Positions 6,108-55,841 of a stretch of DNA of 64,000 bases are shown here, piece after piece. Origin of the DNA: a virus. Location of the stretch: positions 46,668 to 110,667 of the IMG/VR virus record IMGVR_UViG_3300032893_000002; one strand, given 5' to 3'. The notes beneath the pieces are model-generated. The model had not been told where the DNA came from. It made no database searches and saw only the letters and a list, made by a program, of their open reading frames with translations. How positions within the stretch are numbered: position 1 is the stretch's first letter; every line of letters starts with the position of its first letter. Both the position numbers and the translations under genes were made by a program.

Positions 6108-6832
6108 TGGCTGTCGAATTTGACGCAGTTGGACCTAATTCGTCAGGTACAGGCGGAACAGGAGTAAATATAGCTGCAACTCCTATTAATTGGAATCATA
6201 CTTGTTCCGGAACAAATGGATTATTAGTTGTATGTGTTACATATGGAGGAGGAGATAATCCAACATTCTCAGACTTTAGTGTAACATACAATAGTATTCC
6301 TATGCTTCAAGGAGCATTTCAATACAACGCAAATGATGGTACAGATTGTGCGATGCTGTTCTATCTTATTGCGCCCGCATCAGGAACGAATCAAGTTTCT
6401 CTATTTTCTAATTCGGGCTTCCTTTATGGGGATTTTCAGTGTGGATCTGTGAGTTACACAGGTGTAGATCAAATTACAGGGATAAGAAATGCTGTTAGTA
6501 ATGCAAGTTCAGGCGCATCTTCTCCAGCAACATTAACAGTATCAAGTGCTGTAGGGAACATGGTAGCATTTGGTTTAGGGTCAGGTGCATATAGCGGAAC
6601 TTCAAACCAAACGGACAGATGGCAGTTTAATCAAAATGGTGATACGGGCGGAAGCAATGGACTTCAATCTGATGCTCCAGGCGCGGCTTCTGTTTCGTTT
6701 AGCGATTCAATTAATGGCGGTGCAGGTGATTATTGGGGTATTGTAGGATTTGATATAATTGCAGCATCATCGTTATCAATTTATCCTGAAGATATGACGC
6801 CCGGATCAGAAGTAACGTTTAGAATTATTTAA
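6107..6832 (+). CDS. Member 5 of tandem paralog family (C-terminus YPEDMTPGSEVTFRII)
   Basis: TAATG overlap with upstream gene. Same core pattern and C-terminal motif. Confidence 0.6.
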   Translation: MAVEFDAVGPNSSGTGGTGVNIAATPINWNHTCSGTNGLLVVCVTYGGGDNPTFSDFSVTYNSIPMLQGAFQYNANDGTDCAMLFYLIAPASGTNQVSLFSNSGFLYGDFQCGSVSYTGVDQITGIRNAVSNASSGASSPATLTVSSAVGNMVAFGLGSGAYSGTSNQTDRWQFNQNGDTGGSNGLQSDAPGAASVSFSDSINGGAGDYWGIVGFDIIAASSLSIYPEDMTPGSEVTFRII

Positions 6833-11485: not shown

Positions 11486-11680
11486 ATGCCAACCTTCGCC
11501 GCTATTTTAGCTGTTCTGGATGCAATGGCTAGAGGAAAACTTACGCTACATCCTTCATTAGAGGGAGCCGTAAGTTTTGTTTATGCTCCGCCATCGCAAA
11601 TCTATGTTCAACAAAGTTATCCGACACAGCAGATTGTTATAGAAGCATCCAGTACGTGCTGTGTGTCGTTTGGAGGGTAG
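11486..11680 (+). CDS. Small hypothetical protein (64 aa)
   Basis: ORF ends with TAG and is followed, in the same frame, by the next gene. No motif recognised. Confidence 0.3.
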   Translation: MPTFAAILAVLDAMARGKLTLHPSLEGAVSFVYAPPSQIYVQQSYPTQQIVIEASSTCCVSFGG

Positions 11681-34800: not shown

Positions 34801-37290
34801 TACATGTTCTGCAATGGGACAAACTCTAACTGGGGTGGCTGTCAGGTTTGGGTATCTTACGACGGTATTAATTACAATCAATTTGGAACAGTTCAAACTC
34901 CTGGAAGACTTGGAGTAACAACTGTAGATTTCCCAGCTCCAAATCCGCCAATTCCGCCGGATGAATTACCGTATTATGATAATACAGATACACTTATTGT
35001 TAACATGCAGCAAAGTGGTGCTATCCTACAACCTGTTTCTAACGTGCAGCAGGCTGCATACATCTCGCTCAGCGGGTTAGTTAGTCCAGGTCAAGAATAT
35101 GCAACTCAAAATGTAGCCGGAGTAGGAATTAATATTGGTTCTGGATACGGAGGAGGTCCCGGGCAAACAGGATTAGTTCAGGTGACTAGTGGTACAAATG
35201 GATCGCCATTTCCAGGCCGACCTTCTGTTCAATGGACCAGCCCAGGCGATGTAACTGGTACTGCAGGATATGCAACTGCAACAGTTAATGTGCCTACTAC
35301 GTCTGGAACCTACTCCTTACTCGCAACATTTGCAGGTAGTTCTTTAAATGTGCCTACGTCTGGAATTCCTGCTATCACAGGTGTTCAGGTACAGCTAACA
35401 TTATATTTGTCGTCAACTAACCCTCCCAATACAGAATTTAGTTTTTATATAACAAGAGGCGGGCAGTTATACGGCATAGCAAAAACATATACTGCCGGGT
35501 TGCCTACCTCACCCACAACAATTTCGTTGGGAGGTCCGAATGATTTATGGGGATTTAGTTCTTTGTCGGCTGACCAAGTAAATGATCCGACATTTGGTAT
35601 AGCGATTTTTGGATTTGATGGTTCGGGACCTTCTACAGCAACGTTTAACGTCCAAAATGTTCAAATAGAAGTAATTTGGGGAGGCGGGGGATCAACAAAT
35701 TCTGCTCCTCAAGCAATTTCATGGAGTAATGCAACAGCAATTACTTCAAACGCCACATTTGCTACGGCAACCCTTACTTCGAGTATCAATACTACAACGT
35801 GGCTTTTAGCATCCGACTTTAATTTCAATTTTCCATTTGGATTTGTTCCATCAGGTATTCAAGTTGATGTATGGGCAAATACAACAGATTCCAGCGGAAC
35901 ACAACAATTAACAGCGCAACTCTGGTTGGAGAATTCCCCAATTGGAGGATTAAAAGCAGTAGCTCCAGTTACTAATTCGGCTGCTGATTATACGTTTGGA
36001 TCTGATGGTGATGTATGGGGAACAGCATTAGATATGCAAAACTTGAATGATCCGTCTTTCGGCGTTGCTTTTCAAATGAACACATCTTTAGGCGGCGCTG
36101 TAACAGAATCAATTAAAGACGCGCAGATAACGATCTACGGCGAATCTGCTGCAAACTTAGAATTAATTGCTTATCAGGATGCTGAATTAACAGGTAATGA
36201 TACGTATACATTACCGCCGCCAATCTTACGGGGGATTTATGGAACCACGCCAATCGATAGTCCAGCAGGAACAACGTTTGCAAGATTAGATCAAGCTTCT
36301 GTAATATACACATATGATCCAACATATAGCGGATCGATTATCTTTGTAAAATTCCTTAGTTTTAATTTATATGGTAATAACTTACAGTCGCTTGCAAGCG
36401 TTTCAGCATATGAAATTGAGTTAACTGGAGTTGGAGCTGGAGCTATTGATACAGAAACAGGTGCCTTACAGACAGGAACAGTACAAAATACAGTTGCAAG
36501 AATGGATGATGCTGTTAATGCGGTACATGGAAGTTACGGCATCACAAATATTCCAGCCGGATACGGTTTAATTGGCCAACTTAATGTTCCGTCAGGTCTG
36601 CCACAGTGGCAACCAGTCTTAACAGGCAGCGTAGGAGCTTCTGTTTGTAATCTTTATGTAATTCCCATTAGCGGTCCTGCAACTGCAAACGTTAATGCAT
36701 GGGATTTATTAGAGTGTACTACAACTAGCGGCGCAATAACAGTTAACTTCCCTTCAGCTTCTGGGAATAAAAGTACTGTTATCGGGATTAAAAAGGCTTC
36801 GTCAGATACAAATACAATCACACTTGTAGGCAATGGTGCTGATACTATTGAAACAACATCTATATCACGTTACCTAGATTGCTTATACTTTGCGTCGGAT
36901 GGAGTTTCGAATTGGTTTATCTTTGGTGGTTATACAGGCGCGCCGAATGATATGTATATTTATATTCCGCCTGCTGCAGGAACGTATTCAGCAAACCAGG
37001 AGTTATATTATTCACAACCCGTTCGAAATATCACATTGCCCCAAAATCTAACTGGGTCGAATACAGGATGCAGAAGTAATCCAACAAGTACAGCTGTTAT
37101 TACGCTAAATAAAAATGGGGCTTCAATTGGGACGATTAGCTTTAATACTTCGGGCGTTCCGACAATTACATTCTCTTCCGCAGTAACATTTAATGGAACA
37201 TCTGATACATTTAGTATCACTGCTCCATCAAGTCCTGATCTGACATTTAAAGGGTTCTGGGTGAATATTTTAGTGGGCCGCGTGATTTAA
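31831..37290 (+). CDS. Central tail fiber / host specificity protein (lambda gpJ-like), 1819 aa
   Basis: Central block KITRTPWQNRYNRTQLGWTV...DEASIDRYGL...FLEPGDIVEVTDGYASDG parallels the gpJ conserved core. S/T/G-rich C-terminal half. Confidence 0.75.
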   Translation: MSFGDGNQYPPTRYNGIRTNESVRNTPITIMFGQNRLSWKMVWCGKVVSKQAQSPGGSGLGKGGTQWVYTTSIIGVVCMGAANGLLSVWDTIGRFATTSQTEQYVVPTGGGTYYTQNSETFILDSGVSYASPYSITVDDYGSPGSTTITGVAQVPMQAVNASPGAGQYIANAAAGSYFFSSDMAGSAIEITYYYWRYTIITNELDVIPLINPYQITVNNQPEFISDEGVTYYPSGVALSPVSGTPIVTGTYNPNGGNYLFAAADAGQGVNISYTFKDPNSDNNAPSQLNLTFFNGALGQPVWSFLQSDYPGDAIGYSQVCYIGSSALYLGFTPAIPQYSFEIAGPYQFGGGIVDASPSDCIEAILTDPGYGIGFPSSYLQVGSYSNVSLPVTNGDFESGSGSSTPPGWINQGSPTIAYDTTTQFAGTQSVVLTATNHNIGIIDNTTSGAIVNGVYPCQPLDQFILTGALKQNSGGMTPIVYVQFYDTGNSPLALTNYITPPDSVVWTFTEAFSSPSVMAYSNAAAQAASFQVFTYSATQSTSANNAFAGQVFSFTGGAVQNQGSFLCAASNTTTMTVVNSSGVASGLAGNVSPLTTVYTGAVTTGAYSNFSNVKFIVTGFSNSGNDGTFTCYTSNTSALTLYNGNGVTETHAGTGTATQWWKNYPGYKFQAPLDATTFKIGTNCMYTNGGGASTTQWEVDNITLTQIVTVDGLQSTIRAYWAANNFFISPIIDNSVAVGSVLNDWLEAGQVMAFWSEAQLKFVPLGDTTSIANGYTFQPPTNPIVSLDFDCFVVDIGSPEDPIKITRTPWQNRYNRTQLGWTVRSDNYNSDVMIAQDEASIDRYGLTIEPSRTCAFITTEEAAQWAANLRVQRSVAVVNTYTFRLQHNYDFLEPGDIVEVTDGYASDGEGGPLGLYLTPVRITKIVNDFEKGLSIEAENFPWSIGTAVLYDKQGQLPPNTQDAYHADPGNTVPVIFEAPGRLGLYNGNNLYMFCNGTNSNWGGCQVWVSYDGINYNQFGTVQTPGRLGVTTVDFPAPNPPIPPDELPYYDNTDTLIVNMQQSGAILQPVSNVQQAAYISLSGLVSPGQEYATQNVAGVGINIGSGYGGGPGQTGLVQVTSGTNGSPFPGRPSVQWTSPGDVTGTAGYATATVNVPTTSGTYSLLATFAGSSLNVPTSGIPAITGVQVQLTLYLSSTNPPNTEFSFYITRGGQLYGIAKTYTAGLPTSPTTISLGGPNDLWGFSSLSADQVNDPTFGIAIFGFDGSGPSTATFNVQNVQIEVIWGGGGSTNSAPQAISWSNATAITSNATFATATLTSSINTTTWLLASDFNFNFPFGFVPSGIQVDVWANTTDSSGTQQLTAQLWLENSPIGGLKAVAPVTNSAADYTFGSDGDVWGTALDMQNLNDPSFGVAFQMNTSLGGAVTESIKDAQITIYGESAANLELIAYQDAELTGNDTYTLPPPILRGIYGTTPIDSPAGTTFARLDQASVIYTYDPTYSGSIIFVKFLSFNLYGNNLQSLASVSAYEIELTGVGAGAIDTETGALQTGTVQNTVARMDDAVNAVHGSYGITNIPAGYGLIGQLNVPSGLPQWQPVLTGSVGASVCNLYVIPISGPATANVNAWDLLECTTTSGAITVNFPSASGNKSTVIGIKKASSDTNTITLVGNGADTIETTSISRYLDCLYFASDGVSNWFIFGGYTGAPNDMYIYIPPAAGTYSANQELYYSQPVRNITLPQNLTGSNTGCRSNPTSTAVITLNKNGASIGTISFNTSGVPTITFSSAVTFNGTSDTFSITAPSSPDLTFKGFWVNILVGRVI

Positions 37291-43950: not shown

Positions 43951-44274
43951 ATGCCAGCAACAATCACAGATATTCAAACAGTAGCAGTTTCTGGAATCGC
44001 CGCAGTTGACGCTGCTGGTGAGCCAGTTGCTGTAGATACAACCAAGATCACATGGACCGTAGGCGATCCAACATTACTAACAATTGTGTTAGATCCTACA
44101 TCTGGTCTACCAACATTTGGATTTAACAAAGGTGTATTTACTGGAACTTTACCGGCAACATCACAAGTGTCTGGTTTAGATACAGTTAATAACCTGACCT
44201 CGACCGATAGTATTACTGTTAATACTAGCGCTGCTACAACCGAGACAATTCAGTTTGCTGTGCCAACCCCGTAA
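43951..44274 (+). CDS. Hypothetical protein, possible Ig-like (BIG2-type) domain
   Basis: AAGGAG RBS. T/V-rich beta pattern. Followed by a terminator. Confidence 0.3.
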   Translation: MPATITDIQTVAVSGIAAVDAAGEPVAVDTTKITWTVGDPTLLTIVLDPTSGLPTFGFNKGVFTGTLPATSQVSGLDTVNNLTSTDSITVNTSAATTETIQFAVPTP

Positions 44275-44300
44275 CTAACACTGCTTGAAAAAGCTAATAA

Positions 44301-44335
44301 AGGCCGACTAGTTCAAATCTAGCTCGGCCTTTTTA
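44301..44335 (+). terminator. Rho-independent terminator
   Basis: AGGCCGACTAG...CTAGCTCGGCCT hairpin followed by TTTTT. Confidence 0.6.
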
Positions 44336-44353
44336 CTTAAGTATGGTTAAGTA

Positions 44354-44536
44354 ATGTCGGACTATTCTGGAGTACTTTATCAGTATAGCTGCAATAAATG
44401 CGGCAGTTCGTATCTAATAGAACTGAGAGCAGGCCCGCTCGCCGCGCCTTTTCACTGTCCAACTTGTAGCGCTTCATCCCCAGAATTTCATTGGGATTAC
44501 TTGCGCTTCCAGTATATAAAAGGAAGCACATTTTAG
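44354..44536 (+). CDS. Small zinc-ribbon protein
   Basis: CNKCG...CPTC. Confidence 0.3.
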   Translation: MSDYSGVLYQYSCNKCGSSYLIELRAGPLAAPFHCPTCSASSPEFHWDYLRFQYIKGSTF

Positions 44537-44545
44537 GAGACGTAA

Positions 44546-45436
44546 GTGGCTAATGATACAGCAATGCTGTACCGAGATTTAAATGCTAAGCAAAAAGCAA
44601 CATTTGAGTGGATGGCTAATTTATGGAAAAAGCAGCAGCCACTTGATAAAGGCGTGCGGATGTCCACGCACATGAATTATGCTGAACAAACAAAACACGT
44701 AGTTTGGCACCTACCTGCGACACTTAAACAAATCGAATTAATTCATATTACAGATGTTCAATTTGGACATGTATACTGTAAAGTCGATCGTGTAGTCGAA
44801 TACCGAGATTGGGTATTATCCGAACCTAACAGGTATATGTTATGGGGAGGAGATATGATTGATGCGTATGCGTTAATGAAATCTCCGGGAAGTCCTTGGG
44901 AAGAAGTAGGGGATAGTCAATCACAAGCAAATCTATTTGCAGAGATTTGGGGTCCTGCACGACACAGGATTTTGGGATATGTAGGAGGGAATCACGAACG
45001 TCGTGGCCTTTCCAGTTTCGGAGATTTAGGGGTTTACATAGCCAATATCTTACAAATTCCATATAGTTCAGGACAACAATTTATAGATATTCATTTCGGT
45101 AAGTGGGCACCGTTTAGAGTACATCTTTGGCATGGTCGGGGAGCTGCAAAAACAAAAGGCGCAAAGATAAATCTAATTCACGAAATCATGAAGAAATCAG
45201 ACTGTGACCTAATTCTATTAGGTCATTTACATGATGTCTTGATGACATTCGATTGGAGAGTTGTTCGAGATAACAGTTCTAATATTTGTTTAAAGAAGCA
45301 AGGAGGGGCCATGTCGTCAAGTTTCCTAGAATTCTTCGGAACATATGCAGAAGTAGCTGGATTAAACCCTGCAGACGTTATGATGGCATGTACAACTCTA
45401 TTTCCAAATGGGCATTGGCGGCTTCAGTTCCAATAA
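44546..45436 (+). CDS. Calcineurin-like metallophosphoesterase (possible SbcD/Mre11-like nuclease)
   Basis: Motifs ITDVQFGH, GGDMIDA, GGNHE, GHLHD. Confidence 0.6.
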   Translation: MANDTAMLYRDLNAKQKATFEWMANLWKKQQPLDKGVRMSTHMNYAEQTKHVVWHLPATLKQIELIHITDVQFGHVYCKVDRVVEYRDWVLSEPNRYMLWGGDMIDAYALMKSPGSPWEEVGDSQSQANLFAEIWGPARHRILGYVGGNHERRGLSSFGDLGVYIANILQIPYSSGQQFIDIHFGKWAPFRVHLWHGRGAAKTKGAKINLIHEIMKKSDCDLILLGHLHDVLMTFDWRVVRDNSSNICLKKQGGAMSSSFLEFFGTYAEVAGLNPADVMMACTTLFPNGHWRLQFQ

Positions 45437-45457
45437 TAGTAAGCTGGGAGCTAGGCA

Positions 45458-45835
45458 GTGAGAAGCGATCGTTCACTAAAAATGTGGTATCGCGAAATTA
45501 ATGCGCGGTTCTTTGATAATGAACTGCCCGATAACATTGTTGTGAAGTGGGGAGGACCAGAAGAGGAAGATGATGAGGCTAACTGGGAAGAGAAGTATAA
45601 TGGCTATGCCCAACGTCTAATTGGAGATCCTCTCCACTATGCTGTTATAGTATTAAATAATGATTTAAGACATAATCCAACATTCAAGCTATCGATCCTA
45701 GTTCACGAAATGATTCATGTTGCAACAGATTTTAGAGACAGTCACGGAGATGCCTTTAATAACTGGCTTAAGAAATTGATGGACAAAGGGTTATTTAAGA
45801 AGGGCGCTCTGTTTAGAGGGATAACTTTATTTTGA
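45458..45835 (+). CDS. SprT-like zinc metallopeptidase domain protein
   Basis: EINARFFDNELPD...IVLNNDL...LVHEMIHVATDFRDSHGDAFNNWL (HExxH). Confidence 0.5.
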   Translation: MRSDRSLKMWYREINARFFDNELPDNIVVKWGGPEEEDDEANWEEKYNGYAQRLIGDPLHYAVIVLNNDLRHNPTFKLSILVHEMIHVATDFRDSHGDAFNNWLKKLMDKGLFKKGALFRGITLF

Positions 45836-45839
45836 AATT

Positions 45840-46208
45840 ATGTGTGCTACGGGGTGTCACGTGTGTGGAATAGCTAAATTAACGCCAGAACAGAAAAAGT
45901 ATTATGATGAACGAAAAGCAACACGTCAGCGTTTAGATTTACGTGGGATAGAACTTCATACTATAGAAAAATATCCTGAGCAAATTCAAGAAATTGAAGA
46001 TGGCTTGCGTAAATGGTGGGAAGAGCGGCAAGATCAGCCTGATGAAATTGTAGTAGATAGTGTAGAAGCTCTTATGTGTTTGCTTAAACAGGAACCCAAA
46101 GGATCCTCTTACTACACAAAATGGCACTCATATGTTTACTGGTATAAAACTAAATTTTCAATGAATCCTGAATGCGATTCGAGAATACCCATTTTTGGGA
46201 ATATTTGA
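45840..46208 (+). CDS. Hypothetical protein
   Basis: ORF only. Confidence 0.3.
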   Translation: MCATGCHVCGIAKLTPEQKKYYDERKATRQRLDLRGIELHTIEKYPEQIQEIEDGLRKWWEERQDQPDEIVVDSVEALMCLLKQEPKGSSYYTKWHSYVYWYKTKFSMNPECDSRIPIFGNI

Positions 46209-46218
46209 AGGAGAATTC

Positions 46219-46413
46219 ATGGCGGGAACAAATCAATGGGGTAACTATTACGACAACACAGGAACGGTTCCTATCGAGTATGGTAATCCAGGAGTATCGG
46301 AGAATAATCCTTGGGGATTTCCTGTGCCGGGAGTCGATTCAGAAAGTAATCAAAATGTAAATGAAACGAATCCTAATCCTCCTACAGGAGGGATTAATCC
46401 GTATCCGTTTTAG
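46219..46413 (+). CDS. Small G/N/P-rich hypothetical protein
   Basis: GGAG RBS, start MAGTNQWG. Confidence 0.3.
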   Translation: MAGTNQWGNYYDNTGTVPIEYGNPGVSENNPWGFPVPGVDSESNQNVNETNPNPPTGGINPYPF

Positions 46414-46493
46414 GAGGTACGTGTTTTAAGCTCGCTTGTAACCTGTAAAGTATTTGCGACGAATGCATTTAATTCATGATTGAAGAATTAATT

Positions 46494-46600
46494 TGGCGCC
46501 CCTGGAGGGATTCGAACCCCCGACCAATGAGTTAATACCCACTGCTCTTTTGAGGGCGGATTTAGAGTCCGCAGCTCTGACCAGACTGAGCTACAGGGGC
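46494..46600 (-). tRNA. tRNA gene with anticodon CUA (amber-suppressor-like), class II-like with unusually long variable region, genomically encoded CCA
   Basis: Reverse complement reads GCCCCTG-TA-GCTC-AGTCTGGTCA-GAGC-T-GCGGA-CUCUAAA-TCCGC-(34 nt)-GGGGG-TTCGAAT-CCCTC-CAGGGGC-G-CCA. Acceptor, D, anticodon and T arms are well formed. The variable region holds an 8-bp hairpin. Coordinates +/-1. Confidence 0.6.
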
Positions 46601-46735
46601 GCATTAAAAATTATGTTTACCAATTCTTCTGCTCAATCTATTCTTTATTGTCCAAATTGTGGAAAACAACTTTACGAGCATCGTTGTAAGTTAATCTGCG
46701 AATGTGGTTTCTTTCTAAGCTGCAGCGATTTTTAC

Positions 46736-46764
46736 TAGACATTCATTCCAATGTGCGTTATAAT
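46736..46764 (+). promoter_or_regulatory. Near-consensus sigma70-like promoter
   Basis: TAGACA-N17-TATAAT; GGAGG RBS at ~46785. Confidence 0.45.
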
Positions 46765-46798
46765 ATAAACTACCTGTCACATTAGGAGGTAATTTAGC

Positions 46799-46999
46799 AT
46801 GGCAGTTGGAAATAATGATTTGCAAGGCAACCTAGTTAATCAATATGGACCTTGGCCGACGACAGGCATTGGTACTGGAGGCGCAGTTACAATTTCTTCC
46901 ACTCTACAGTTAACCAATTTTTACGTTCAAGGTAACGGTGGTTCGAAAGCTAATAGCACTACTAACTTCCTCGCACAACTCCTCGCAGATACCCCGTAA
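46799..46999 (+). CDS. Small stand-alone protein (66 aa, G/T/N-rich) with dedicated promoter and terminator
   Basis: MAVGNNDLQGNLVNQYGPWPTTGIGTGGAVTISS... Strong RBS. Terminator 7 nt downstream. Confidence 0.45.
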   Translation: MAVGNNDLQGNLVNQYGPWPTTGIGTGGAVTISSTLQLTNFYVQGNGGSKANSTTNFLAQLLADTP

Positions 47000-47005
47000 G
47001 TTAAA

Positions 47006-47037
47006 AGGGGCAAGTTTAACTAGCTTGCCCCTCTTCT
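47006..47037. terminator. Bidirectional rho-independent terminator between convergent genes
   Basis: GGGGCAAG-tttaacta-CTTGCCCC, with T-runs on both strands (TCTTCTT on plus, TTTTAA on minus). Confidence 0.6.
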
Positions 47038-47045
47038 TAACTCAT

Positions 47046-47462
47046 TCAATGTAAGCTGAAGCTAGAGATTCCCGGAGAAGGATTTGAACCCTCATTGCTC
47101 CGTACTGGAGATCCTCGCATTTGAATGATCCGGGAGTGTTCACAACATTCGTTCGGTTTATAGACACGATATTCTTTTAGTATATCTCTCTGCTGCCCCC
47201 AAATAGGTGCAGTAGCGATTGCTGTTAGCCCATAATTAAAATCTGGTTCAATCCACGCGAAATGCGGAATTTTGTTCTTGCGTAGTTTAAGTTGGACTTT
47301 TTGAAGGGATTTTGTGTGAGGCACACCTATGGCGACGATATTAGGTACGCCTTCTTCACCGCGAAGCGCTGCCATCATCATCGTTGCGTGATTGGATTGG
47401 ACGATTTGCTGAGCTAAGGGAAGATCTGTTCGGAAGAACAGATACACGTAACGTTCGGACAT
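47046..47462 (-). CDS. PTH2-type peptidyl-tRNA hydrolase, divergent copy
   Basis: YVYLFFRTDLPLAQQIVQSNHA and FAWIEPDFNYGLTAIATAPIW match the PTH2 motifs (VRTDL...AAQCSHA; IRDAG.T...TVLAIGP). Confidence 0.55.
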   Translation of the reverse strand: MSERYVYLFFRTDLPLAQQIVQSNHATMMMAALRGEEGVPNIVAIGVPHTKSLQKVQLKLRKNKIPHFAWIEPDFNYGLTAIATAPIWGQQRDILKEYRVYKPNECCEHSRIIQMRGSPVRSNEGSNPSPGISSFSLH

Positions 47463-47508
47463 CTATGTCATATGCTATCTCCTATGTTATATTTGTTTTG
47501 ATTCTTTG

Positions 47509-47706
47509 TCAACCCGCATGGGTCTTCTCTAATTTATTCCAATTCTGATCTCTATTGTGTTTTTCTTTGAGGTGCTTCTCATATAAATCAGATACTTGCT
47601 GCTCTTCATCTGGCGATATTTCTTTATCTGGACTATAATAGCCAAATCTATTTCCACAGAATGGGCAACCAGGAACCAATTCAAAAGTATATCTCTGAGC
47701 ACTCAT
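47509..47706 (-). CDS. Small Cys-pair (zinc-binding-like) protein
   Basis: CPFCGNRF; minus-strand early-gene array. Confidence 0.3.
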   Translation of the reverse strand: MSAQRYTFELVPGCPFCGNRFGYYSPDKEISPDEEQQVSDLYEKHLKEKHNRDQNWNKLEKTHAG

Positions 47707-47708
47707 TT

Positions 47709-47924
47709 TTATTTATTTATTCTAACCTCGATAAGTTTAACTGTACTATAGCATGATTCACTTTCTGTTATACCACCAATTGCCCAGCACTTATGGCAGA
47801 CGCTATCAGCTTCGGTTCCTGTTTCTTCAGACGCTCTAAGTTCATGTCCATTGACGAAGACATGATGAATCTTTGCTCTATCTTCGCTATCTATAATTAG
47901 TTCAAGAGTGATTTTATGCTTCAT
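47709..47924 (-). CDS. Small hypothetical protein
   Basis: ORF packed in the minus-strand array. Confidence 0.3.
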   Translation of the reverse strand: MKHKITLELIIDSEDRAKIHHVFVNGHELRASEETGTEADSVCHKCWAIGGITESESCYSTVKLIEVRINK

Positions 47925-48255
47925 CGCTCTTCCTTTTTAACTTATTTCCTAATTCATATCCCATTCTAAACATATCTTCTGCAGTATATCGTTCTCCGTA
48001 ATCGACGCATCTAAATACAGGATGAACTGCACCAAATAATTCGAATACTTTCTTCGCTACGTCTGGATCATAATACCCAGCCATATATCCAAGATTATCG
48101 CGCAATGTAGAAGAAGCTTCGAAATATGAAAGACTGCACTCCTGTTGCATCTTCGCAACTTCTTTTTCAAACCATATATCTGCTTCTGCTCTTGTTCTAC
48201 AACTTAGAGCTTGTTTAAATTGCTCATCAACACTTCTTACTTCATCCATTTTCAT
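47914..48255 (-). CDS. Hypothetical protein
   Basis: ORF; overlaps the neighbouring gene by a few nucleotides. Confidence 0.3.
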   Translation of the reverse strand: MKMDEVRSVDEQFKQALSCRTRAEADIWFEKEVAKMQQECSLSYFEASSTLRDNLGYMAGYYDPDVAKKVFELFGAVHPVFRCVDYGERYTAEDMFRMGYELGNKLKRKSDEA

Positions 48256-48411
48256 CTTCCTGTTCCCAAAATCTACACCACCTCGCTAGATTAAGTAATT
48301 CTTTTGGATAGCCATCACGGATTAATGTATCATGTAAACTTTCGCCTTCCAAAGGTTTATACTCTTTTGGAAAACCATATTTCCAGCCTTCGGGCGGATC
48401 GTAAATTCTAG

Positions 48412-48615
48412 TCATATTGGTCGTTCATGCAGTACCTTTCCGCATTGATTGCACACGATTTTTATCTTATTGTAAGCGCAGCCCCATCCAGGACTTGATA
48501 TTACTTCGCGAGTCTTTGGGTGATCACACTTTTTCCCTTTAGGCCAATTGCGTCCGAAGTTGGGTTTCAAAAGAAACGTAACAGGAAATGCAGAATCACG
48601 AATTGATATATTCAT
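48412..48615 (-). CDS. Small zinc-ribbon-like protein
   Basis: CDHP...CNQCG. Confidence 0.3.
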   Translation of the reverse strand: MNISIRDSAFPVTFLLKPNFGRNWPKGKKCDHPKTREVISSPGWGCAYNKIKIVCNQCGKVLHERPI

Positions 48616-48998
48616 ATGCTTCCTTTTTCTTTTAGAAAAGCTATCTCTGCAGCAGCTAGTTCATCAATTAAGCGATTTAGCTTTTCGTACTCTTGCCCAG
48701 ACGGAAGAAGTCCGTCGCGCTTAATTTTCATTGCTTCGTAACCTACATCATAAAAGGCTTCATCGAGATTTTTCATAAATATGTCTTTCAAGTCAAGTGC
48801 GTACTGGACGGACTGGCCTTCGCCTGGGCACGCGAACTTCAGGTGTTTATATCCGGATTCGGTCTCTGGCTCTGTTGATCTGCGTGGTTTGCTGACAGAA
48901 CCAGAGAGCGGCGGGAAAGGACGGAACTCTCGCTCATAGCGAGCTATCTCGTCTCGCAAATCAACAAGTTGAAGAGTTAAGCCATTTAGAGATTTCAC
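48612..48998 (-). CDS. Hypothetical protein
   Basis: ORF only. Confidence 0.3.
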   Translation of the reverse strand: MKSLNGLTLQLVDLRDEIARYEREFRPFPPLSGSVSKPRRSTEPETESGYKHLKFACPGEGQSVQYALDLKDIFMKNLDEAFYDVGYEAMKIKRDGLLPSGQEYEKLNRLIDELAAAEIAFLKEKGSI

Positions 48999-49155
48999 AA
49001 ATATACTTTTAGTAAGTTATTTATTTCAGGATTATTAATTCCTTTAAGTAAGCATACTTCGCGAACAAGTTCAGCAATTGTGAAGACGACCCAGAGTTCG
49101 TTTGGTTCCTCTTCGCCAGTTATCACCTCTGCTATTTTGAGTAATTCAGTTTCGG

Positions 49156-51798
49156 TCATGCTTCTTCTTTCAACTCACTTATAGTATTCGATATATTACC
49201 AGACATCATTGTGCTTGAAAGTGCAAACTGTCCAATCGAGTACGCCTGTGCCAATAACACTAAGAATCGATCTCTTGTATTTCTAGATTTTTGAACATAA
49301 AGTCTAGCTAAGCCTAATCGTTGTTCTTCTGGAGTTTGGCTATAAGTTACTACAATATCAGCCGTTCCTATCTTACTCCAATCTTCTGCAACGTTTGTGG
49401 ATGTTACTAACTTGGCAGATTCAGATTCTCTATTACCTTGCGTAGCCGTTACGACTGCCATATTCCGTGCTACAGCTAATCCGCGTAAATCTCTATATAA
49501 TCTTCCAGTATCAATTCTAAGCGAATCAGCATTAAGATACATCAGATCTGCATAATCCAAAACTAAGCAATCAGGAACAAAGTTCTGTTCTTGTTTCAAC
49601 TGTTCTAAATATAAGGTAAGTTGCGGTACGGTAAGAGCTCCAGTAGGGAATTCCTTAATTAATAGCCTTGGATAGCTCTTCATGTCCAGCAATCGTTTAT
49701 GGAGCTCCCTACGCTTAGCAGGGATCGAATTTCGTTGTATATTACGAAACTGGATACTTACTTGTCCATTGACGTCTGTTTCAAAATAGGCTGTATTAAC
49801 TTCTGCTGCTTCGTCTCTTGTTAAACTAAACAAAGATTGAATATATCTCTGTGCAGTCATCTTCTCATCATTCTCAAGCGTGATATGCAGCACGGAATGA
49901 TGATGCATTAGTGAATGCTTACCTACATTTACAAGAAACCAACTATTATGCGTGATGATATTGCCTGCAATAAAGTTGTGATTATCTTTAACTGAGAGAT
50001 CATATGTTTCTATATCTCCGACATACTCGATAGTCTTTACTGAATCAAAAAAGGCATTATCAGATATCTTTATGCAGCCTTTTGGAAACGCAATTTTTGC
50101 AGTATAAGAACATTCGGGCTGACTATATGTTATTAGTTTTTGTTGGGGTTTATATGAAATCAATTTCCCATTTTTATTATAATAGTGTACTTCTGCGTTT
50201 TTTCTAGCGTAACAAACTTTGTCTCTTTTTGGAGATATAACGAGCTTTTGAATTCCGAAACGATCTACAACTATATTAGCTCTTCGAACTTTTTCGGGAA
50301 CAATAAAGCCAATTTTTTTAATGAACTTTAGAACATTTAGTTTGCCCGTAATCACTACATAAGCATATCCTGGAAGTTGTTTTCCTTTCCATTCTGCTGT
50401 AAATGTGTCGAATTTAGCGATAATGCCTAAACGCATAAGAAGATAATTAATATCTTCTACGAGACGTTTACTTGAAAGACTTAATTCTATTACTGGGCAA
50501 TGTGTTTCATGTGCATATATCGACCCATCACAAGAAAAGAATACTTTTAAAAATTCTGCAATCAGTTCATCATTTAGATTGAAAATAAATTCAGGTATGC
50601 ATTTTACATTGGATTTCTTTCCTGCAAGACCTGTTAAGCGAAGCAATTCTTTTACTTTACTATTATGCTTGCCTTTATTTTCCTCATTGCATACAATATA
50701 GCAAAATCCTTCTTCCCAAGATTTATTATCTTTTCCGAAAGAACAACGATCCCCCAGAAATTCCACGCAATGCTGAAAGTCTTTTTGAATTGTTGGATCA
50801 ATATTTGTAAATGTCGGAGTATTTTGTGTTAAGCCTCCCTCGGCAATTAGATACGCAAGTAGACGTACAACTTCTGGTTCTACTTTATTCTTTCCTAAAT
50901 CACTTAATTTAAGTGGAACAGCTATTTTATCTTTTGTAATATCAATATCTTTTATAGCTTTCCATCCAGTTTCAGTTAAAAATGGGTGGTCTTCTGAAAC
51001 CGATATTTCACGCCCTAAGCGTGTAGTAATTTTATAGCATTTCTTTTTACCATTTTTCCACCATCCATTCACATCTGCTACAACGAACTTTTTTTGTTCT
51101 TCCGAGAACGATATAATAGATGTGATCTTTTGTTCTACGGCCTTTTTAATTGTTATCCTTGAACCATCCGGAAGAACTACAAGTTCATTTTCAGCAATGC
51201 ACTTCCCGCGCCCTGCCGCGCCCAAGAAGAGGTACAATGTTTTACGCGATGGACGCACGCCTCTTACGTCTAAAAGATCTACTCCTGATGAAAAGAATTC
51301 TTCCTGTTCTTCCAAATCAAGAAAGCTTAGAGCTTGTTGTGGATCTTTTAGCCATATTCCTGTTGATCCTTCAGGTCCAAGACCTCTATTTTTGAATGCT
51401 GTTTCTTGAGCTTTTTCAAGCTCGCCTTGCCCAAGCAATTCTAAAGCATCTCGTAGTTGCGTCGTCAGTTGTTGAGAAGCTACGAATCGCTCTAACTGTT
51501 CTAAAACGAATGCAGCATCTACTTGTCCTGCCTGTTTCCTGAGAAAATCATATTGCTGCGCTAATAGGGCACCTTGCTGTCCCCGACGCATATCTGCTTC
51601 GAGGAGATATTCAAGTGCTCCCTTTGGTGCATTTCCGAATTTTTTGATGTGGTCTAGAGCTGCTACAGCTATCTGTCTATTTGTAGGATTAGTAAAAATA
51701 TCACTGCTAGGAATTTTAACAGCTAGCGACGCAGCTCTCTCGTCATCCCAACAGAGGAGACTTAGTACTGCCTCCTCTAAGGCTGCTTGCGAGATCAT
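49156..51798 (-). CDS. DnaB-like replicative helicase interrupted by an intein
   Basis: DnaB-like N-terminal domain. Walker A GAAGRGK|S is split by a 419-aa insert that begins with Cys and ends with HN. Walker B LVLDYADLM downstream. Confidence 0.65.
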   Translation of the reverse strand: MISQAALEEAVLSLLCWDDERAASLAVKIPSSDIFTNPTNRQIAVAALDHIKKFGNAPKGALEYLLEADMRRGQQGALLAQQYDFLRKQAGQVDAAFVLEQLERFVASQQLTTQLRDALELLGQGELEKAQETAFKNRGLGPEGSTGIWLKDPQQALSFLDLEEQEEFFSSGVDLLDVRGVRPSRKTLYLFLGAAGRGKCIAENELVVLPDGSRITIKKAVEQKITSIISFSEEQKKFVVADVNGWWKNGKKKCYKITTRLGREISVSEDHPFLTETGWKAIKDIDITKDKIAVPLKLSDLGKNKVEPEVVRLLAYLIAEGGLTQNTPTFTNIDPTIQKDFQHCVEFLGDRCSFGKDNKSWEEGFCYIVCNEENKGKHNSKVKELLRLTGLAGKKSNVKCIPEFIFNLNDELIAEFLKVFFSCDGSIYAHETHCPVIELSLSSKRLVEDINYLLMRLGIIAKFDTFTAEWKGKQLPGYAYVVITGKLNVLKFIKKIGFIVPEKVRRANIVVDRFGIQKLVISPKRDKVCYARKNAEVHYYNKNGKLISYKPQQKLITYSQPECSYTAKIAFPKGCIKISDNAFFDSVKTIEYVGDIETYDLSVKDNHNFIAGNIITHNSWFLVNVGKHSLMHHHSVLHITLENDEKMTAQRYIQSLFSLTRDEAAEVNTAYFETDVNGQVSIQFRNIQRNSIPAKRRELHKRLLDMKSYPRLLIKEFPTGALTVPQLTLYLEQLKQEQNFVPDCLVLDYADLMYLNADSLRIDTGRLYRDLRGLAVARNMAVVTATQGNRESESAKLVTSTNVAEDWSKIGTADIVVTYSQTPEEQRLGLARLYVQKSRNTRDRFLVLLAQAYSIGQFALSSTMMSGNISNTISELKEEA
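49945..51201 (-). mobile_element. Intein with LAGLIDADG homing endonuclease, inserted in helicase P-loop
   Basis: Begins CIAENELVVLPDGS and ends IITHN followed by S. Internal LLAYLIAEGGL (LAGLIDADG motif). Confidence 0.6.
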
Positions 51799-52060: not shown

Positions 52061-53668
52061 CTACACAGCTCTCTTATTTCCAAATTCGAGAATATGCAAA
52101 CGTGGACTGAAGTTGTATCCAAATTTTTCAGCTAGTTCTTTAACTTGATTTTGTCTTAGTTCTTGTTCTTCTTTTGTTCGTCCTTCTGGCATCAACCAAA
52201 CTTGCTTTGGAGAAATATTACAAATAAGTATGATAGCTTTCATTTCTTCGATATCAGCTTCTGATTGAATAACGAATTTAAATGTTGCTTTTTCTCCTAA
52301 AGCAGCAATGCCTTCTAGGATATGTGGTTTCAGCCTATCTTTTAGAGGATTGTCAGGACCTGAATTGGAAGTTTTTGGCGAGCAGTTAAATTGATTTACT
52401 GCATCCGAAAATTCTTTAATTGGTAAGACAGTTCCGTTTGTTTCTACTTCAACCCACCAATCCTCTTGAGTTTTTAGTGTTTTAAATAGTTCTAGCAATT
52501 TCACTTGCTGAAGCATTGGTTCGCCACCAGAGACGACTAAACTTCTAACGTCGCCAGCAAGGGCATAAATCGTATCTCGAACCTTCCAAATTTCCATTTT
52601 ATGAACTTCTAATGCAGGGTCATACTTCTCAGGGTGCTTGAAGTTAGTTCCTATCCACGACCATGTAAACGGTGTGTCGCAGTTATGTGCTAGCAGTGTA
52701 TTAGCGAAATAGCTATGGAAGTCTTCTACTTCTAGGTTGTAGACTTTGATTTTTTTACTATCTCCATTAAATCGCGCTGCTTGTCTAACGCTGATTGGAG
52801 TAACTGAAACAACTTTCTTGCCATTATGCAATGCGTATCTTTTTTGTAAAAAGTATTTTTCTATTCTAATAAACCGTTTTTCCTCTTCAAGATGGCAGCG
52901 TTTGCACAACGTAATCAGCAAATGATATTCATGGCTTTGACAAATTCTAAATGGAATTATATGATGCACTTCTAATTTTGAAGTTGCGCCACATTTTTGA
53001 CATGTATGATTATCGCGCTCTAAAATATCTTCTCGTATGCGATCCCAGTTAGTTAAATAAGTCGGATAATACTCCGCGCGGTCTCCAAGGTATCTTGGAT
53101 TTTTAGGCCCAAGCTTTGAGGCACGTAAGCGCACTCTTGTTTCCCACGAAGCTCTTTTCCCTGTAAAAGTTTTCTTTGCTAGTTCAGATAATCGTTGTCT
53201 AGCCGCTGGTCTATAGGAGGGATTAGCATTTTTCATATACCAAGCGATTGTATCAATATAATTAATTTCATCGCCTGCAAGAAGATTTTCCGCGTTTATC
53301 CATCCCCTATTTGTATAAAATTCATGATTTTTTGTAACAAAAACTCTGCTGCTTTCTGTTTCACCTTCAACTTGAACTTTAACAATTTCTTCTCTTGTAA
53401 CTTCCCTTTCAAATACTTTAGTTACTTTCTTTGGAAGGATTTCTTTGCCATCAGAACTTAAAACTAAATCTCCAACTTTGATATCTTTAATCTTCCGATA
53501 TCCTGTAGGCGTATAGATATGAGTATTTCCAACAAAACACCAGATACAGGCAAGATTGCACCCAGATAAGCGAAGAAATACAACCTTTTTTGTTGCTGTT
53601 TTTCCTTCACCTTGATAGGACGAATATATTTCGTTGACTGCAAGAGTTGATAACATATTTAGGCACAT
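52061..53668 (-). CDS. queE: 7-carboxy-7-deazaguanine synthase QueE (radical SAM) interrupted by an intein
   Basis: Exteins give VNEIYSSYQGEG...RLSGCNLACIW|CDTPFTWSW (CxxxCxxC, QueE-like). A 286-aa insert carries an HNH motif. Confidence 0.65.
   Translation of the reverse strand: MCLNMLSTLAVNEIYSSYQGEGKTATKKVVFLRLSGCNLACIWCFVGNTHIYTPTGYRKIKDIKVGDLVLSSDGKEILPKKVTKVFEREVTREEIVKVQVEGETESSRVFVTKNHEFYTNRGWINAENLLAGDEINYIDTIAWYMKNANPSYRPAARQRLSELAKKTFTGKRASWETRVRLRASKLGPKNPRYLGDRAEYYPTYLTNWDRIREDILERDNHTCQKCGATSKLEVHHIIPFRICQSHEYHLLITLCKRCHLEEEKRFIRIEKYFLQKRYALHNGKKVVSVTPISVRQAARFNGDSKKIKVYNLEVEDFHSYFANTLLAHNCDTPFTWSWIGTNFKHPEKYDPALEVHKMEIWKVRDTIYALAGDVRSLVVSGGEPMLQQVKLLELFKTLKTQEDWWVEVETNGTVLPIKEFSDAVNQFNCSPKTSNSGPDNPLKDRLKPHILEGIAALGEKATFKFVIQSEADIEEMKAIILICNISPKQVWLMPEGRTKEEQELRQNQVKELAEKFGYNFSPRLHILEFGNKRAV
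52682..53539 (-). mobile_element. Intein with HNH endonuclease, inserted before the third Cys of the QueE Fe-S motif
   Basis: Begins CFVGNTHIYTP and ends LLAHN followed by C. HNH motif CQKCGATSKLEVHHIIP...CKRCH. Confidence 0.6.
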
Positions 53669-53776: not shown

Positions 53777-54265
53777 TCATTTCGAATATGTTGCGCTACA
53801 TTTTGCTGTTTCGTGTACTGTGACGCCTGATAAGACTACGCCACTTCCTTTAAATACTTCTGGGCCAATAGTATCCACTAAGTATTGCGCTATGTTTTCT
53901 GCTGTTGGATTAAAAGGCACTATAACTACCCGCGGATCAATTTGCGTTAGTTGTTTTTGCCACGGATCTTGATCCCAAATTAGCATTCTATGATCCCACT
54001 CAGCGTCGAGCCAGGAACACATTCGACGTTTTATTTCTGAAAAATCAATTATCATTCCAATTTCATCTAATTCATCTGCGTGACAGAATAGTTCAAATTT
54101 ATATTCGTGCCCATGTAACGATTGACATGGCCCGGGCTTGCCCAAATTATCATGCTGGCCTACGACTCTATGTCCAGCACATATTGAATGTTCTCGAGTT
54201 ACTATTCCTGTAAAAGGCATTATAATGAAATATACTATTACTTTATTAATTCGTTGCTGCAACAT
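53777..54265 (-). CDS. queD: 6-carboxy-5,6,7,8-tetrahydropterin synthase QueD
   Basis: C..HGH signature CQSLHGHEYKFEL and ICAGHRVVGQ; size 162 aa. Confidence 0.65.
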   Translation of the reverse strand: MLQQRINKVIVYFIIMPFTGIVTREHSICAGHRVVGQHDNLGKPGPCQSLHGHEYKFELFCHADELDEIGMIIDFSEIKRRMCSWLDAEWDHRMLIWDQDPWQKQLTQIDPRVVIVPFNPTAENIAQYLVDTIGPEVFKGSGVVLSGVTVHETAKCSATYSK

Positions 54266-54937: not shown

Positions 54938-55330
54938 TCATTTTACACCATACTTCTTTTGTAGTGCAGCCAGTAAAGCTAGCTCTCTATCGACGGCAGT
55001 TTTTGCTGCTTCGGCGCTCCGCTGTGCTTTTTCAAGTTCTTGTTGCTCTATTGCTTTCTTAATATAAGCTTTAACTTCAGTCGGAGACGTAACTGCGAAT
55101 TCTCTACGATTCCAAGGATAATCATTTCTCCATCCTGCTTCTAAGAGAAAAAACCATTCTTCTTCCGTTAGAGAGAATCCTTTGGAATGAACTGCAAGAG
55201 CATAATAATCTTCTGCTTCTATCTGCGTTACTTCTGCAGGACCATTGATTTGTTCTAATGCCTTATTCAGCATATCAACTTCTATGCTTTCGCCCCGGGA
55301 CCACGCTATAATTTGAAATCCTTCAGTCAT
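54938..55330 (-). CDS. Hypothetical protein
   Basis: ORF only. Confidence 0.3.
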   Translation of the reverse strand: MTEGFQIIAWSRGESIEVDMLNKALEQINGPAEVTQIEAEDYYALAVHSKGFSLTEEEWFFLLEAGWRNDYPWNRREFAVTSPTEVKAYIKKAIEQQELEKAQRSAEAAKTAVDRELALLAALQKKYGVK

Positions 55331-55841
55331 TGCTTATCACCCATACATTATCTGGAAGAATTGTTCCTATTACAGCTTTAACTTCTTCCCATTTTAATCC
55401 GCCATTATTACAACCAGGACGCGGAAGAATATAAACCATTCGAGGATTTCTATGCGCTTGAAAAGATAACTGAATCGCAGAATGTTTAATTAATTCGAGA
55501 TCTGATCTGTCCCGCCAATTATGCTTTGTTGGAAAGATAAGTAAGAAATGATATTGCCCATCTTTGCCAACATTTGCATTCCAAACAACATTCCCATGTT
55601 CCTTTGCGCCGAGAAGATGATCTCCAAGTATTTTAGGAAGATGCGGGTATCGTTCTGCAGCCTCTTTTGCGCACCCTCGACCCATTACTGCTAAACCATC
55701 CTTCCTAATTGTTCCATTTGTAGTTATACAGCATGTATATCCAGGCTGTCCATCAAAATCCCAAAGATTACCTGTTATCTCTTTCACAATTACTCCTTTC
55801 CGGAGCTGTAGGCCATGGCCGTGCAGCTGGCAATGCCGCAT
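55323..55841 (-). CDS. Macro domain (ADP-ribose binding/processing) protein
   Basis: ITGNLWDF...CCITTNG...AVMGRGCAKEAAERYP and ...MVYILPRPGCNNGG follow the macro-domain pattern. Confidence 0.45.
   Translation of the reverse strand: MRHCQLHGHGLQLRKGVIVKEITGNLWDFDGQPGYTCCITTNGTIRKDGLAVMGRGCAKEAAERYPHLPKILGDHLLGAKEHGNVVWNANVGKDGQYHFLLIFPTKHNWRDRSDLELIKHSAIQLSFQAHRNPRMVYILPRPGCNNGGLKWEEVKAVIGTILPDNVWVISND

Follow-up and report, generated by a model that had tools for sequence, protein, structure and literature searches.

The standard-code phage XacN1 carries CUA suppressor tRNAs with no identified target genes (PMC5852040). Suppressor gain in standard-code relatives has also been described, and non-canonical phage suppressors were predicted to escape detection; among recoded phages, surveys of code change that use tRNA finders recovered suppressors in just 35-40% (bioRxiv 10.1101/2021.08.26.457843). 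The variable region of a tRNA is expected to have 4-5 nt (class I) or to form a class II arm of at least 10 nt (PMC7609411). Engineered amber suppressors tolerate hairpins in the variable arm and stay active, and proteins can be recruited or repelled by such hairpins (PMC7590224); E. coli tRNAs with 'V-Spinach' insertions had only marginal activity (cited in PMC7590224). In cluster C mycobacteriophages PTH2-like genes are found within tRNA arrays, sometimes together with a tmRNA (PMC5966550).

A phage amber suppressor is thus an already known kind of tRNA, but the gene analyzed here adds something new, namely a conserved 34-nt variable region on a class-I body of apparent tRNA-Arg type. It is located in what we call the window, the whole 64,000-nt (64 kb) stretch of viral DNA that was analyzed. 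We consider it best explained as a functional phage Sup-CUA tRNA with a selected hairpin of ~29 nt and a PTH2-like module partner, a reading to which we give a probability of roughly 0.6.

The tRNA gene occupies 46494..46600 on the minus strand and is 107 nt long including an encoded CCA. Aligned to Rfam RF00005, positions 46497-46600 scored 59.2 bits (E=3e-10) over the full model (1-71) and cleared the gathering score of 29, and tRNA was the sole Rfam family above threshold across the 64 kb. The minus strand reads GCCCCUG-UA-GCUC-AGUCUGGUCA-GAGC-U-GCGGA-CUCUAAA-UCCGC-(34 nt)-GGGGG-UUCGAAU-CCCUC-CAGGGGC-G-CCA. This corresponds to an acceptor stem (GCCCCUG/CAGGGGC) with 7/7 perfect pairs, a D arm with a 4-bp stem, G18G19 and a 10-nt loop, and a T arm containing one G.U pair, followed by the discriminator G (G73, 46497) and CCA (46496-46494). 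In the anticodon arm the covariance model pairs GCGGA with UCCGC, which gives the anticodon CUA (46565-46563, minus strand) in a 7-nt loop with U33 and A37. The MFE and centroid folds of the 107 nt are the same cloverleaf, at -46.4 kcal/mol (z=-3.5, with 0/200 shuffles equal), and the acceptor/T branch is 7/5 in both the covariance model and the MFE fold. Taken together, these results confirm 46494-46600 as a real tRNA gene, far beyond chance. The original prediction, made by reading the letters alone, had proposed a canonical cloverleaf with a perfect 7-bp acceptor stem, a D arm, a T arm, G73 and CCA, all of which match the strand reading and RF00005, and its choice of CUA as the sole good anticodon arm is borne out by the covariance model and the MFE fold. 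The worry about +/-1 nt in the acceptor C-run falls away as well, as four Cs face four Gs and leave no ambiguity. A search upstream of the tRNA gave no sigma-70-like promoter. In a precursor, G73 and C74 have potential partners in C-1 and G-2.

When the gene is submitted to tRNA predictors the picture is divided: the covariance model finds it strongly and with the CUA arm, whereas ARAGORN gives no call or an implausible arm. In default mode ARAGORN called no tRNA in the window, and relaxed mode did not recover the gene either, a blindness caused by the insertion in the variable loop. The tRNA-Leu(CAA) with a 14-nt 'intron' proposed in intron mode was rejected, since it has two mismatches in the anticodon stem compared with the perfect GCGGA/UCCGC pairing. 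A Pyl-like fold from other modes (relaxed/intron/mitochondrial), in which the variable hairpin serves as T arm, was likewise rejected because the canonical arms are perfect.

The variable region (46522..46555, minus strand) is 34 nt long and begins with 8 unpaired nt (CCUCAAAA), after which a hairpin abuts the T stem. The hairpin core, CAGUGGGU-AUUA-ACUCAUUG (46525..46544, minus strand), includes two G.U pairs, and the variable region folded alone formed an 8-bp core with an AUUA loop, extendable to 10 bp across a G.G mismatch. The fold thereby agrees with the proposed 34 nt with an internal 8-bp hairpin, and the claim that the region far exceeds normal class II arms is supported; in terms of length rules it fits neither class I nor class II. 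The covariance model treats it as a 30-nt insertion, and ~29-30 nt are inserted when compared with relatives whose variable loop is GCGUC (L027) or GAAC (L257). As the two G.U pairs of the core would be C.A mismatches on the opposite strand, the helix is expected to matter on the tRNA strand, i.e. in RNA. No second copy of the core was found in the window at up to 3 mismatches, and among viral contigs only a sister contig, described below, carries it, which argues that the insert is not a mobile element. Nor did the insert show any significant similarity to the tRNA's own flanks, so an origin by duplication is not supported. We also looked for a pseudo-anticodon in the variable arm; one is present in two other viral contigs (L111 and L156) and absent here, where the loop has 4 nt. 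To our knowledge, there is no characterised precedent for a natural class-I body with a 34-nt variable region and 8 unpaired 5' nt.

In 49 viral contigs we found class-I CUA tRNAs that agree with the window tRNA in D stem and T loop; many of these contigs are from phages >100 kb (100-500 kb). The variable loops in this family are 4-10 nt, and the long form occurs only in the sister contig. The closest relatives of the window tRNA are those of L027, L032 and L257. The tRNA of L027, a 360-kb contig, has the D arm, T arm and 3' acceptor strand in common with it and a 5-nt variable loop, and in this comparison the D arm GCUC/GAGC was also identical to that of class-I phage Pro, Thr and Trp tRNAs. 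The tRNA of L257 has the D loop, U26, the arm GCGAA-CUCUAAA-UUCGC, G73 and CCA in common, with a 4-nt variable loop. In another viral contig, L001, a CUA tRNA of Ser type has a variable arm of 35 nt. No TAG recoding was seen at the loci around the related suppressors. On the sequences compared, the window tRNA appears to be an ordinary phage Sup-CUA tRNA to which an insertion of ~29 nt has been added.

The 25-mer at the 3' end of the tRNA (GGGGGUUCGAAUCCCUCCAGGGGCG) is found in the genomes of 37 bacterial species. ARAGORN calls a tRNA-Arg (UCU, CCU or UCG) in 36/37 of these, nearly always with the 5' strand GCCCCUG; in the 37th (L234) it calls cta, in a loop GUUCUAA that is also present in L206 and L212 and that we read by eye as UCU. 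As this 25-mer belongs to bacterial tRNA-Arg, the acceptor/T domain is, judged from sequence, of tRNA-Arg type. Together with the class-I D arm this speaks against the suggested origin by one change from Ser-CGA or Gln-CUG. The main determinants of ArgRS are A20 and C35. The window tRNA has U20 and U35 in their place, which makes arginine unlikely and means that another synthetase would be needed. One candidate is glutamine: GlnRS, to which CUA suppressors usually fall, is favoured by U35, G73 and G10, and glutamine is the only TAG reassignment seen in phages with a code unlike that of the host (PMC9976931; bioRxiv 10.1101/2021.08.26.457843). Serine is also a candidate, as the extended variable arm, together with G73, favours SerRS and serine identity is independent of the anticodon; the class-I D arm, the 8-nt linker and C2-G71 are points against it. 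The tRNAs of the module described below have mixed acceptor features (G73, A73 and U73 types) and are uninformative on amino-acid identity.

Possibly, a class-I suppressor whose first synthetase depended on the anticodon acquired a long variable arm, and the hairpin and G73 switch charging to seryl-tRNA synthetase, so that UAG would be read as serine, which is a narrower version of the best explanation and does not contradict it. The window tRNA has the G73 and a variable stem of 8-10 bp, the ArgRS determinants A20 and C35 are missing although the acceptor/T domain is Arg-type, and L001 provides a CUA tRNA of Ser type with a variable arm of 35 nt. However, its D arm has the 4-bp stem found in phage Pro/Thr/Trp tRNAs, and 8 unpaired nt precede the variable stem, whereas we read one or two in the class II tRNAs that were aligned. 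Moreover, C2-G71 is an antideterminant for E. coli SerRS (PMC9976931), and U35, G73 and G10 equally favour GlnRS (PMC9976931; bioRxiv 10.1101/2021.08.26.457843). G73 is also present in the normal-loop relatives of L032, L044, L061 and L257, and was therefore not acquired together with the arm. We regard a switch to SerRS as unlikely.

The window belongs to a tailed phage, with a tail assembly protein, a head-tail adaptor, a tail-fibre-like protein and HNH nucleases, and it also encodes glycosyltransferases, QueD, GIY-YIG nucleases and a DarG-like macrodomain, as well as two inteins, one in a DnaB-like helicase and one in a radical-SAM enzyme. Genes are on the plus strand up to ~46360 and on the minus strand from 64000 to 47046, with the tRNA at the convergence. 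When translated with the standard code, 91% of the window lies in stop-to-stop ORFs of at least 100 aa, and reading TAG as sense adds no more coverage than reading TGA as sense. The 80 called genes end in TAA (45), TGA (22) or TAG (13), an ordinary share for TAG. Within the 64 kb of genome no in-frame TAG interrupts any gene and no avoidance of TAG was seen, nor are backup stops closer after TAG, as the median next in-frame stop is at 13 codons, about the same as for TAA. Of the 13 genes that end in TAG, five share the frame of the following gene, where about one third is expected by chance. These were considered as read-through fusions and rejected, as the joined translations correspond to separate proteins (new N-termini, a signal-like start, a complete QueE). 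We conclude that the standard code is in use in the window and that nothing there points to an adaptation to amber suppression. This is in line with the original prediction, where global TAG recoding was not evident, and both the ORF coverage and the stop census now bear it out. The same-frame TAG junction at 11678-11680, which had been singled out there, exists together with four others alike, and there is no protein continuity at any of them.

The next gene upstream of the tRNA on the minus strand is a diverged PTH2-like ORF (47046..47462), with a conserved domain at ~47151-47462. It had no match in Pfam (E<=0.01) or NCBIfam (E<=0.1), neither PF01981 nor TIGR00283 being detected at those cut-offs, and no PHROG function, and BLASTP against the window's own PTH2 gave nothing. 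A profile of 27 sequences had its best match, over the whole domain, in the PDB peptidyl-tRNA hydrolase 24bt (E=0.0099). The same N-terminal motif was aligned by hhalign against a PTH2 alignment, without significance (probability 1%). The profile match and the hhalign alignment are weak but concordant lines, and suggest a remote relationship through a diverged PTH2-like fold. On the other side stand the low hhalign probability, a structure model whose mean pLDDT is 59, and an apparent lack of conservation of the lysine in the PTH2 GK motif. The window's bona fide PTH2 domain protein is encoded 15 kb from the tRNA (61783..62274, minus strand; domain residues 6-90); it matches Pfam PF01981 (E=4.7e-13) and, below the curated cut-off, TIGR00283 (E=5.8e-11), and all of its 78 homologues are annotated PF01981. 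A Thg1-like protein of the tRNA-His guanylyltransferase family (62852..63643, minus strand; PF04446, E=1.8e-24) is encoded 16 kb from the tRNA.

The final ~35 codons of the diverged PTH2-like ORF are probably not real protein but read-through of a degenerate tRNA-like element (47069..47135, minus strand), which scores 26.3 bits with RF00005, below the gathering score. The acceptor stem of this element is perfect (7 bp) and its T arm is good, and a 4-bp stem with a 5-nt loop takes the place of the anticodon arm. The element differs from that of L077 by 2 substitutions in 67 nt, was aligned with the first tRNAs of six related loci (L235, L237, L240, L236, L238 and L241), and occupies the site taken in other phages by the first CUA tRNA after the PTH2-like gene. 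By reading the sequence we found a terminator-like hairpin (GGGGCAAG-CUAGUUAAA-CUUGCCCC, then UUUU; 47003..47031, minus strand), missed by the scanning tool because of its 9-nt loop, that divides the PTH2-like/tRNA-like unit from the suppressor tRNA. Between this terminator and the tRNA lies a 66-aa ORF (46799..46999, plus strand) with a GGAGG Shine-Dalgarno, which is kept in L077 and gave no family match; a promoter-like site is found at 46736-46764 on the plus strand.

Nine homologues of the diverged PTH2-like ORF were found in the protein database. Their conserved part stops near residue 100, and the tails show no relationship apart from a GSNP that recurs as the translation of the tRNA T arm GGTTCAAATCC. 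In 8/8 homologue contexts from the protein search a CUA-type tRNA was present at or past the gene end. After the PTH2-like gene there is one CUA tRNA each in L237 and L240 and two in L238; L235 has a 6-nt loop UUCUAA and then UUCUAAA; L236 has CUA, Lys-UUU and CUA, and L241 has the same three followed by a tmRNA-like sequence. A profile-guided scan extended this to 25 viral loci with relatives of the ORF, a few of them near-duplicates, where ARAGORN called 68 tRNAs. CUA tRNAs make up 29 of these, all 29 downstream of or overlapping the PTH2-like gene and on its strand. At least one CUA tRNA is present at 19/25 loci by ARAGORN and at one more by Rfam, i.e. at at least 20/25. Among the other five, L249 has an Arg-UCU-like tRNA at the gene end, L261 and L266 have tmRNAs, L264 has a UCA tRNA and L262 has none of these. 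Sequence context thus indicates a conserved two-part module, in which a diverged PTH2-like gene precedes one or two CUA tRNAs, and we did not find this link described in the literature searched. It is tempting to speculate, although we hold this only tentatively, that the two form a dedicated and widespread UAG-handling module, which went further in this lineage by using the selected hairpin as a private handle, serving synthetase identity, a protein partner or nuclease protection. As part of the same reading, and just as tentatively, the protein might act specifically on the acylated or peptidyl suppressor, in recycling, timing or proofreading.

The surroundings of the tRNA are also relevant for a reading in which it is a tRNA-shaped decoy, sponge or regulator that would, for example, titrate a toxin, a modification enzyme or a tRNA-targeting nuclease of the host, with hairpin and PTH2-like protein belonging to a counter-defence kit. 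The window gives no visible sign that UAG read-through is used, a conserved tRNA-like element without an anticodon loop lies in the same region, and modules elsewhere often hold a tRNA-Lys(UUU) and several of them a tmRNA. The genome further has a Thg1-like tRNA repair enzyme, a second PTH2 and the DarG-like macrodomain, which would suit such a kit. A decoy would however be expected to copy a host anticodon loop, and what we observe is a canonical loop (U33, A37, 7 nt) with CUA kept in dozens of unrelated phage tRNAs, as selection for decoding predicts. The perfect acceptor, the encoded CCA and the standard T loop likewise point to charging, and on balance we find a decoy quite unlikely.

By pattern scans the same tRNA was found in two sister contigs, L002/L078 (IMG/VR 3300032893_001520, also Ga0335069_10006563) and L077 (Ga0335069_10038514). 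Over 11.4 kb aligned to L078 the window differs at 17% of bases, and its divergence from L077 is 9%; in the flanks of the tRNA up to ~11% of bases are different, and indels start shortly past the CCA. Over the 107 nt of the tRNA itself there is 1 substitution against the sisters, which is the 1 found in the 34-nt variable region. This sole change, G to A at 46539, converts a G.U pair of the hairpin to A-U and pairing is kept. Since the sole change preserves pairing, and since the tRNA is nearly identical amid 9-17% divergence, the hairpin is predicted to be under constraint; for the whole tRNA, insert included, the comparison of these three sequences from closely related samples gives good evidence of constraint. 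A single metagenome scan for diverged long-arm copies returned the two sister contigs only, and blastn of 44000-49000 against 50,697 GenBank phage records gave no match.

This conservation bears directly on whether the gene is a pseudogene, i.e. a suppressor that was recently disabled when a 29-nt insertion wrecked its core. Such an origin would fit with the rejection by ARAGORN, with the lack of a similar insert in any other family member, with the clear degeneration of the module's first tRNA in this lineage and with a phage that shows no dependence on UAG decoding. A dead gene would nevertheless drift like its flanks, and would not show a single substitution in 107 nt where the DNA around it has diverged by 9-17%. 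In addition, all stems are intact and the single change is structure-preserving, while indels riddle the DNA past the CCA, which makes a pseudogene very unlikely. That the insert is excised after transcription, as an intron or processed spacer at a non-canonical position, to leave an ordinary 78-nt suppressor is highly improbable. Removal of ~29 nt would restore a normal NGGUC variable loop as in the relatives, and mobile and splicing elements abound in the genome (two inteins, HNH and GIY-YIG nucleases). However, the insert falls well short of the length of a group I/II intron and matches no Rfam intron family, is a simple hairpin with one G.G mismatch and neither 3-nt bulges nor a bulge-helix-bulge in a phage that looks bacterial in type, is not repeated, and is accompanied by no tRNA splicing endonuclease or ligase among the scanned window proteins.

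A functional Sup-CUA tRNA would in our opinion work as follows. The gene would be transcribed from the minus strand and matured by the tRNA-processing enzymes of the host, with no need for CCA addition as the CCA is encoded. Charging would be by a host aminoacyl-tRNA synthetase that tolerates the CUA anticodon, and the charged tRNA would compete with release factor 1 at UAG, so that, going by its anticodon, the window tRNA is predicted to suppress amber codons. Its class-I body would combine an acceptor/T domain of tRNA-Arg type with a D arm common to other phage tRNAs. The hairpin of ~29 nt probably entered the variable loop in this phage lineage alone and would have been kept by selection. 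It would project from the elbow of the L-shape like a class-II variable arm, so that decoding should still be possible, and it is most likely neither junk nor an intron but an added handle through which a synthetase, some other protein or a nuclease would recognise the tRNA or be kept from doing so. The PTH2-like protein would most plausibly recycle or control the acylated or peptidyl form of the CUA tRNAs.

Our results have consequences for how phage suppressors are searched for and understood. That a strong suppressor-type tRNA is hidden from ARAGORN suggests that part of the gap in the surveys of recoded phages may be a detection artefact. A 34-nt variable region maintained by selection on a class-I tRNA would widen the natural architecture of tRNAs, and the window tRNA is a ready test case for the design of orthogonal tRNAs. 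Why standard-code phages carry amber suppressors can be approached concretely through the repeated linkage of diverged PTH2-like genes and CUA tRNAs. If the reading of module and handle is true, this would be a natural counterpart of the engineered aptamer-tagged suppressor tRNAs and a way into the role of suppressor tRNAs in standard-code phages.

When compared with the known systems, the window tRNA resembles other phage Sup-CUA tRNAs (crAss-like, Lak, jumbo XacN1) in that it is phage-borne, has CUA in a 7-nt loop and a class-I body, and as in XacN1 the standard code is used and no targets are evident (PMC5852040). It differs from these in its 34-nt variable region, as compared to 4-10 nt, and in being missed by ARAGORN, and unlike the code-15 phages (bioRxiv 10.1101/2021.08.26.457843) there is no TAG recoding in the 64 kb of the window. 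With class II tRNAs (Ser, Leu, bacterial Tyr, Sec) it shares a helical arm between the anticodon and T arms, and with tRNA-Ser the combination of G73 and a long variable arm. In contrast to class II tRNAs, however, the D arm is class-I and the arm is longer, with 8 unpaired nt before it and none after it. The 7/5 branch also separates it from allo-tRNAs, which have 8/4 or 9/3 (PMC5389517), and it falls outside the branch lengths that define allo-tRNA/tRNA-Sec-like molecules (8/4, 9/3 or 8/5). The tRNA-Arg (UCU/CCU/UCG) of Chloroflexota, CPR, Gammaproteobacteria and Clostridia have an identical acceptor, T arm and discriminator (GCCCCUG ... GGGGGUUCGAAUCCCUCCAGGGGC-G), and differ from it in the anticodon (CUA, with U35 for C35), in position 20 (U20 for A20), in the D loop and in the long variable region.

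A close parallel to the hairpin is offered by engineered tRNAs, i.e. aptamer-tagged allo-tRNAs, V-Spinach and pseudo-anticodon arms, where an extra hairpin is likewise placed at the variable position (PMC7590224). The engineered forms demonstrate that such tRNAs can be accepted by the ribosome, and by analogy these hairpin suppressors make it plausible that the hairpin acts as a handle. Unlike them, the window tRNA is natural, with a 4-nt AUUA loop, no recognisable aptamer or anticodon mimic, and a 7/5 class-I chassis. For the PTH2-like gene the cluster C mycobacteriophages are the best comparison, since there too a small PTH2-like gene is found among phage tRNA genes (PMC5966550); the family in the window differs from theirs in being too diverged for Pfam and in its specific linkage to CUA tRNAs (29/68).

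The two nucleotides directly before the suppressor tRNA on the minus strand, G-2 and C-1 (window 46601-46602), are able to base-pair with C74 and G73; the acceptor helix of the precursor would then reach 9 bp. Both are kept in the two sister contigs, and a helix of this length could influence where RNase P cleaves.

Inside the PTH2-like ORF, at its 3' end, is a tRNA-like element (window 47069-47135, minus strand). Its 7-bp acceptor stem is perfect and its T arm good, but the place of the anticodon arm is taken by a stem of only 4 bp with a loop of 5 nt. L077, the sister contig that differs from the window in 9% of bases, keeps the element with its G-CCA 3' end still present. The element may be a relic of the first CUA tRNA of the module, or it may be a signal for mRNA 3'-end processing. 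Its exact 3' end (window 47069) is also the point at which L077 carries 1221 nt that are absent from the window. Within this segment we found an odd tRNA (L077 3933-4007, plus strand, 58.9 bits) with the loop UAUCUAA and A33, a D loop without GG (AGAGAAA), and G73 followed by CCA; ARAGORN assigned it as Arg-UCU. A similar tRNA with the loop UUUCUAA is situated at the end of the PTH2-like gene of another viral locus, L249. Other RNAs were also observed among the loci encoding PTH2-like proteins, namely tRNAs whose 8-nt loop ARAGORN read as holding a four-base anticodon, CUAG, an ochre (UUA) tRNA, and genes for tmRNA or permuted tmRNA; these genes are located at +1999 relative to the end of the gene in L254/L255, at +723 in L251, and at 1086-1168 in L241, 821-1088 in L261 and 863-1056 in L266.

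Five of the 13 window genes that end in TAG are in frame with the next gene with no stop between (1814, 11680 and 18487 on the plus strand, 52061 and 61783 on the minus strand), and the corresponding counts are 7/45 for TAA and 1/22 for TGA. Protein continuity across the five TAG junctions was sought in the translations and none was seen, and therefore, judged from sequence, the junctions are probably due to chance.

Elsewhere on the minus strand of the window, a DnaB-like helicase (49156-51798), whose intein contains a LAGLIDADG domain, and a QueE-like radical-SAM enzyme (52061-53668) with an intein of the Hint/HNH type adjoin a QueD (PTPS) gene (53777-54265). Taken together, QueD, the QueE-like enzyme and the inteins suggest that this genome is rich in mobile elements and encodes a 7-deazaguanine pathway. 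A 172-aa protein (55323-55841, minus strand) has an NCBIfam match to the macrodomain portion of DarG, an antitoxin (E=3e-13, with a score far below the curated cut-off) and is a possible candidate for counter-defence against DarT-type ADP-ribosylation. The structural block on the plus strand holds very large ORFs of 1550 aa (6832-11484), 2767 aa (20753-29056) and 1819 aa (31831-37290).

Two further viral contigs, L111 (about 8300-8400) and L156 (about 6400-6500), encode on the plus strand CUA tRNAs with a 27-nt variable region. The hairpin in this region has a loop of 7 nt (CUCUGAC or CUCUGAA), which matches a Gln (CUG) anticodon loop perfectly. The hairpin may be a natural 'pseudo-anticodon' arm allowing GlnRS to recognize an amber suppressor; alternatively, these RNAs may be tRNA-Gln bearing an extra CUA arm. 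Extra variable arms were also observed in further class-I-type phage tRNAs, in L013, L015, L026 and L235 (2864-2953, 4917-5007 and 5169-5247), including tRNA-Pro(UGG) with arms of 17 nt, a Tyr-like tRNA whose anticodon is GUU, and an Arg-UCU tRNA in which the variable region measures 19 nt. Expansion of the variable loop looks recurrent among phage tRNAs.
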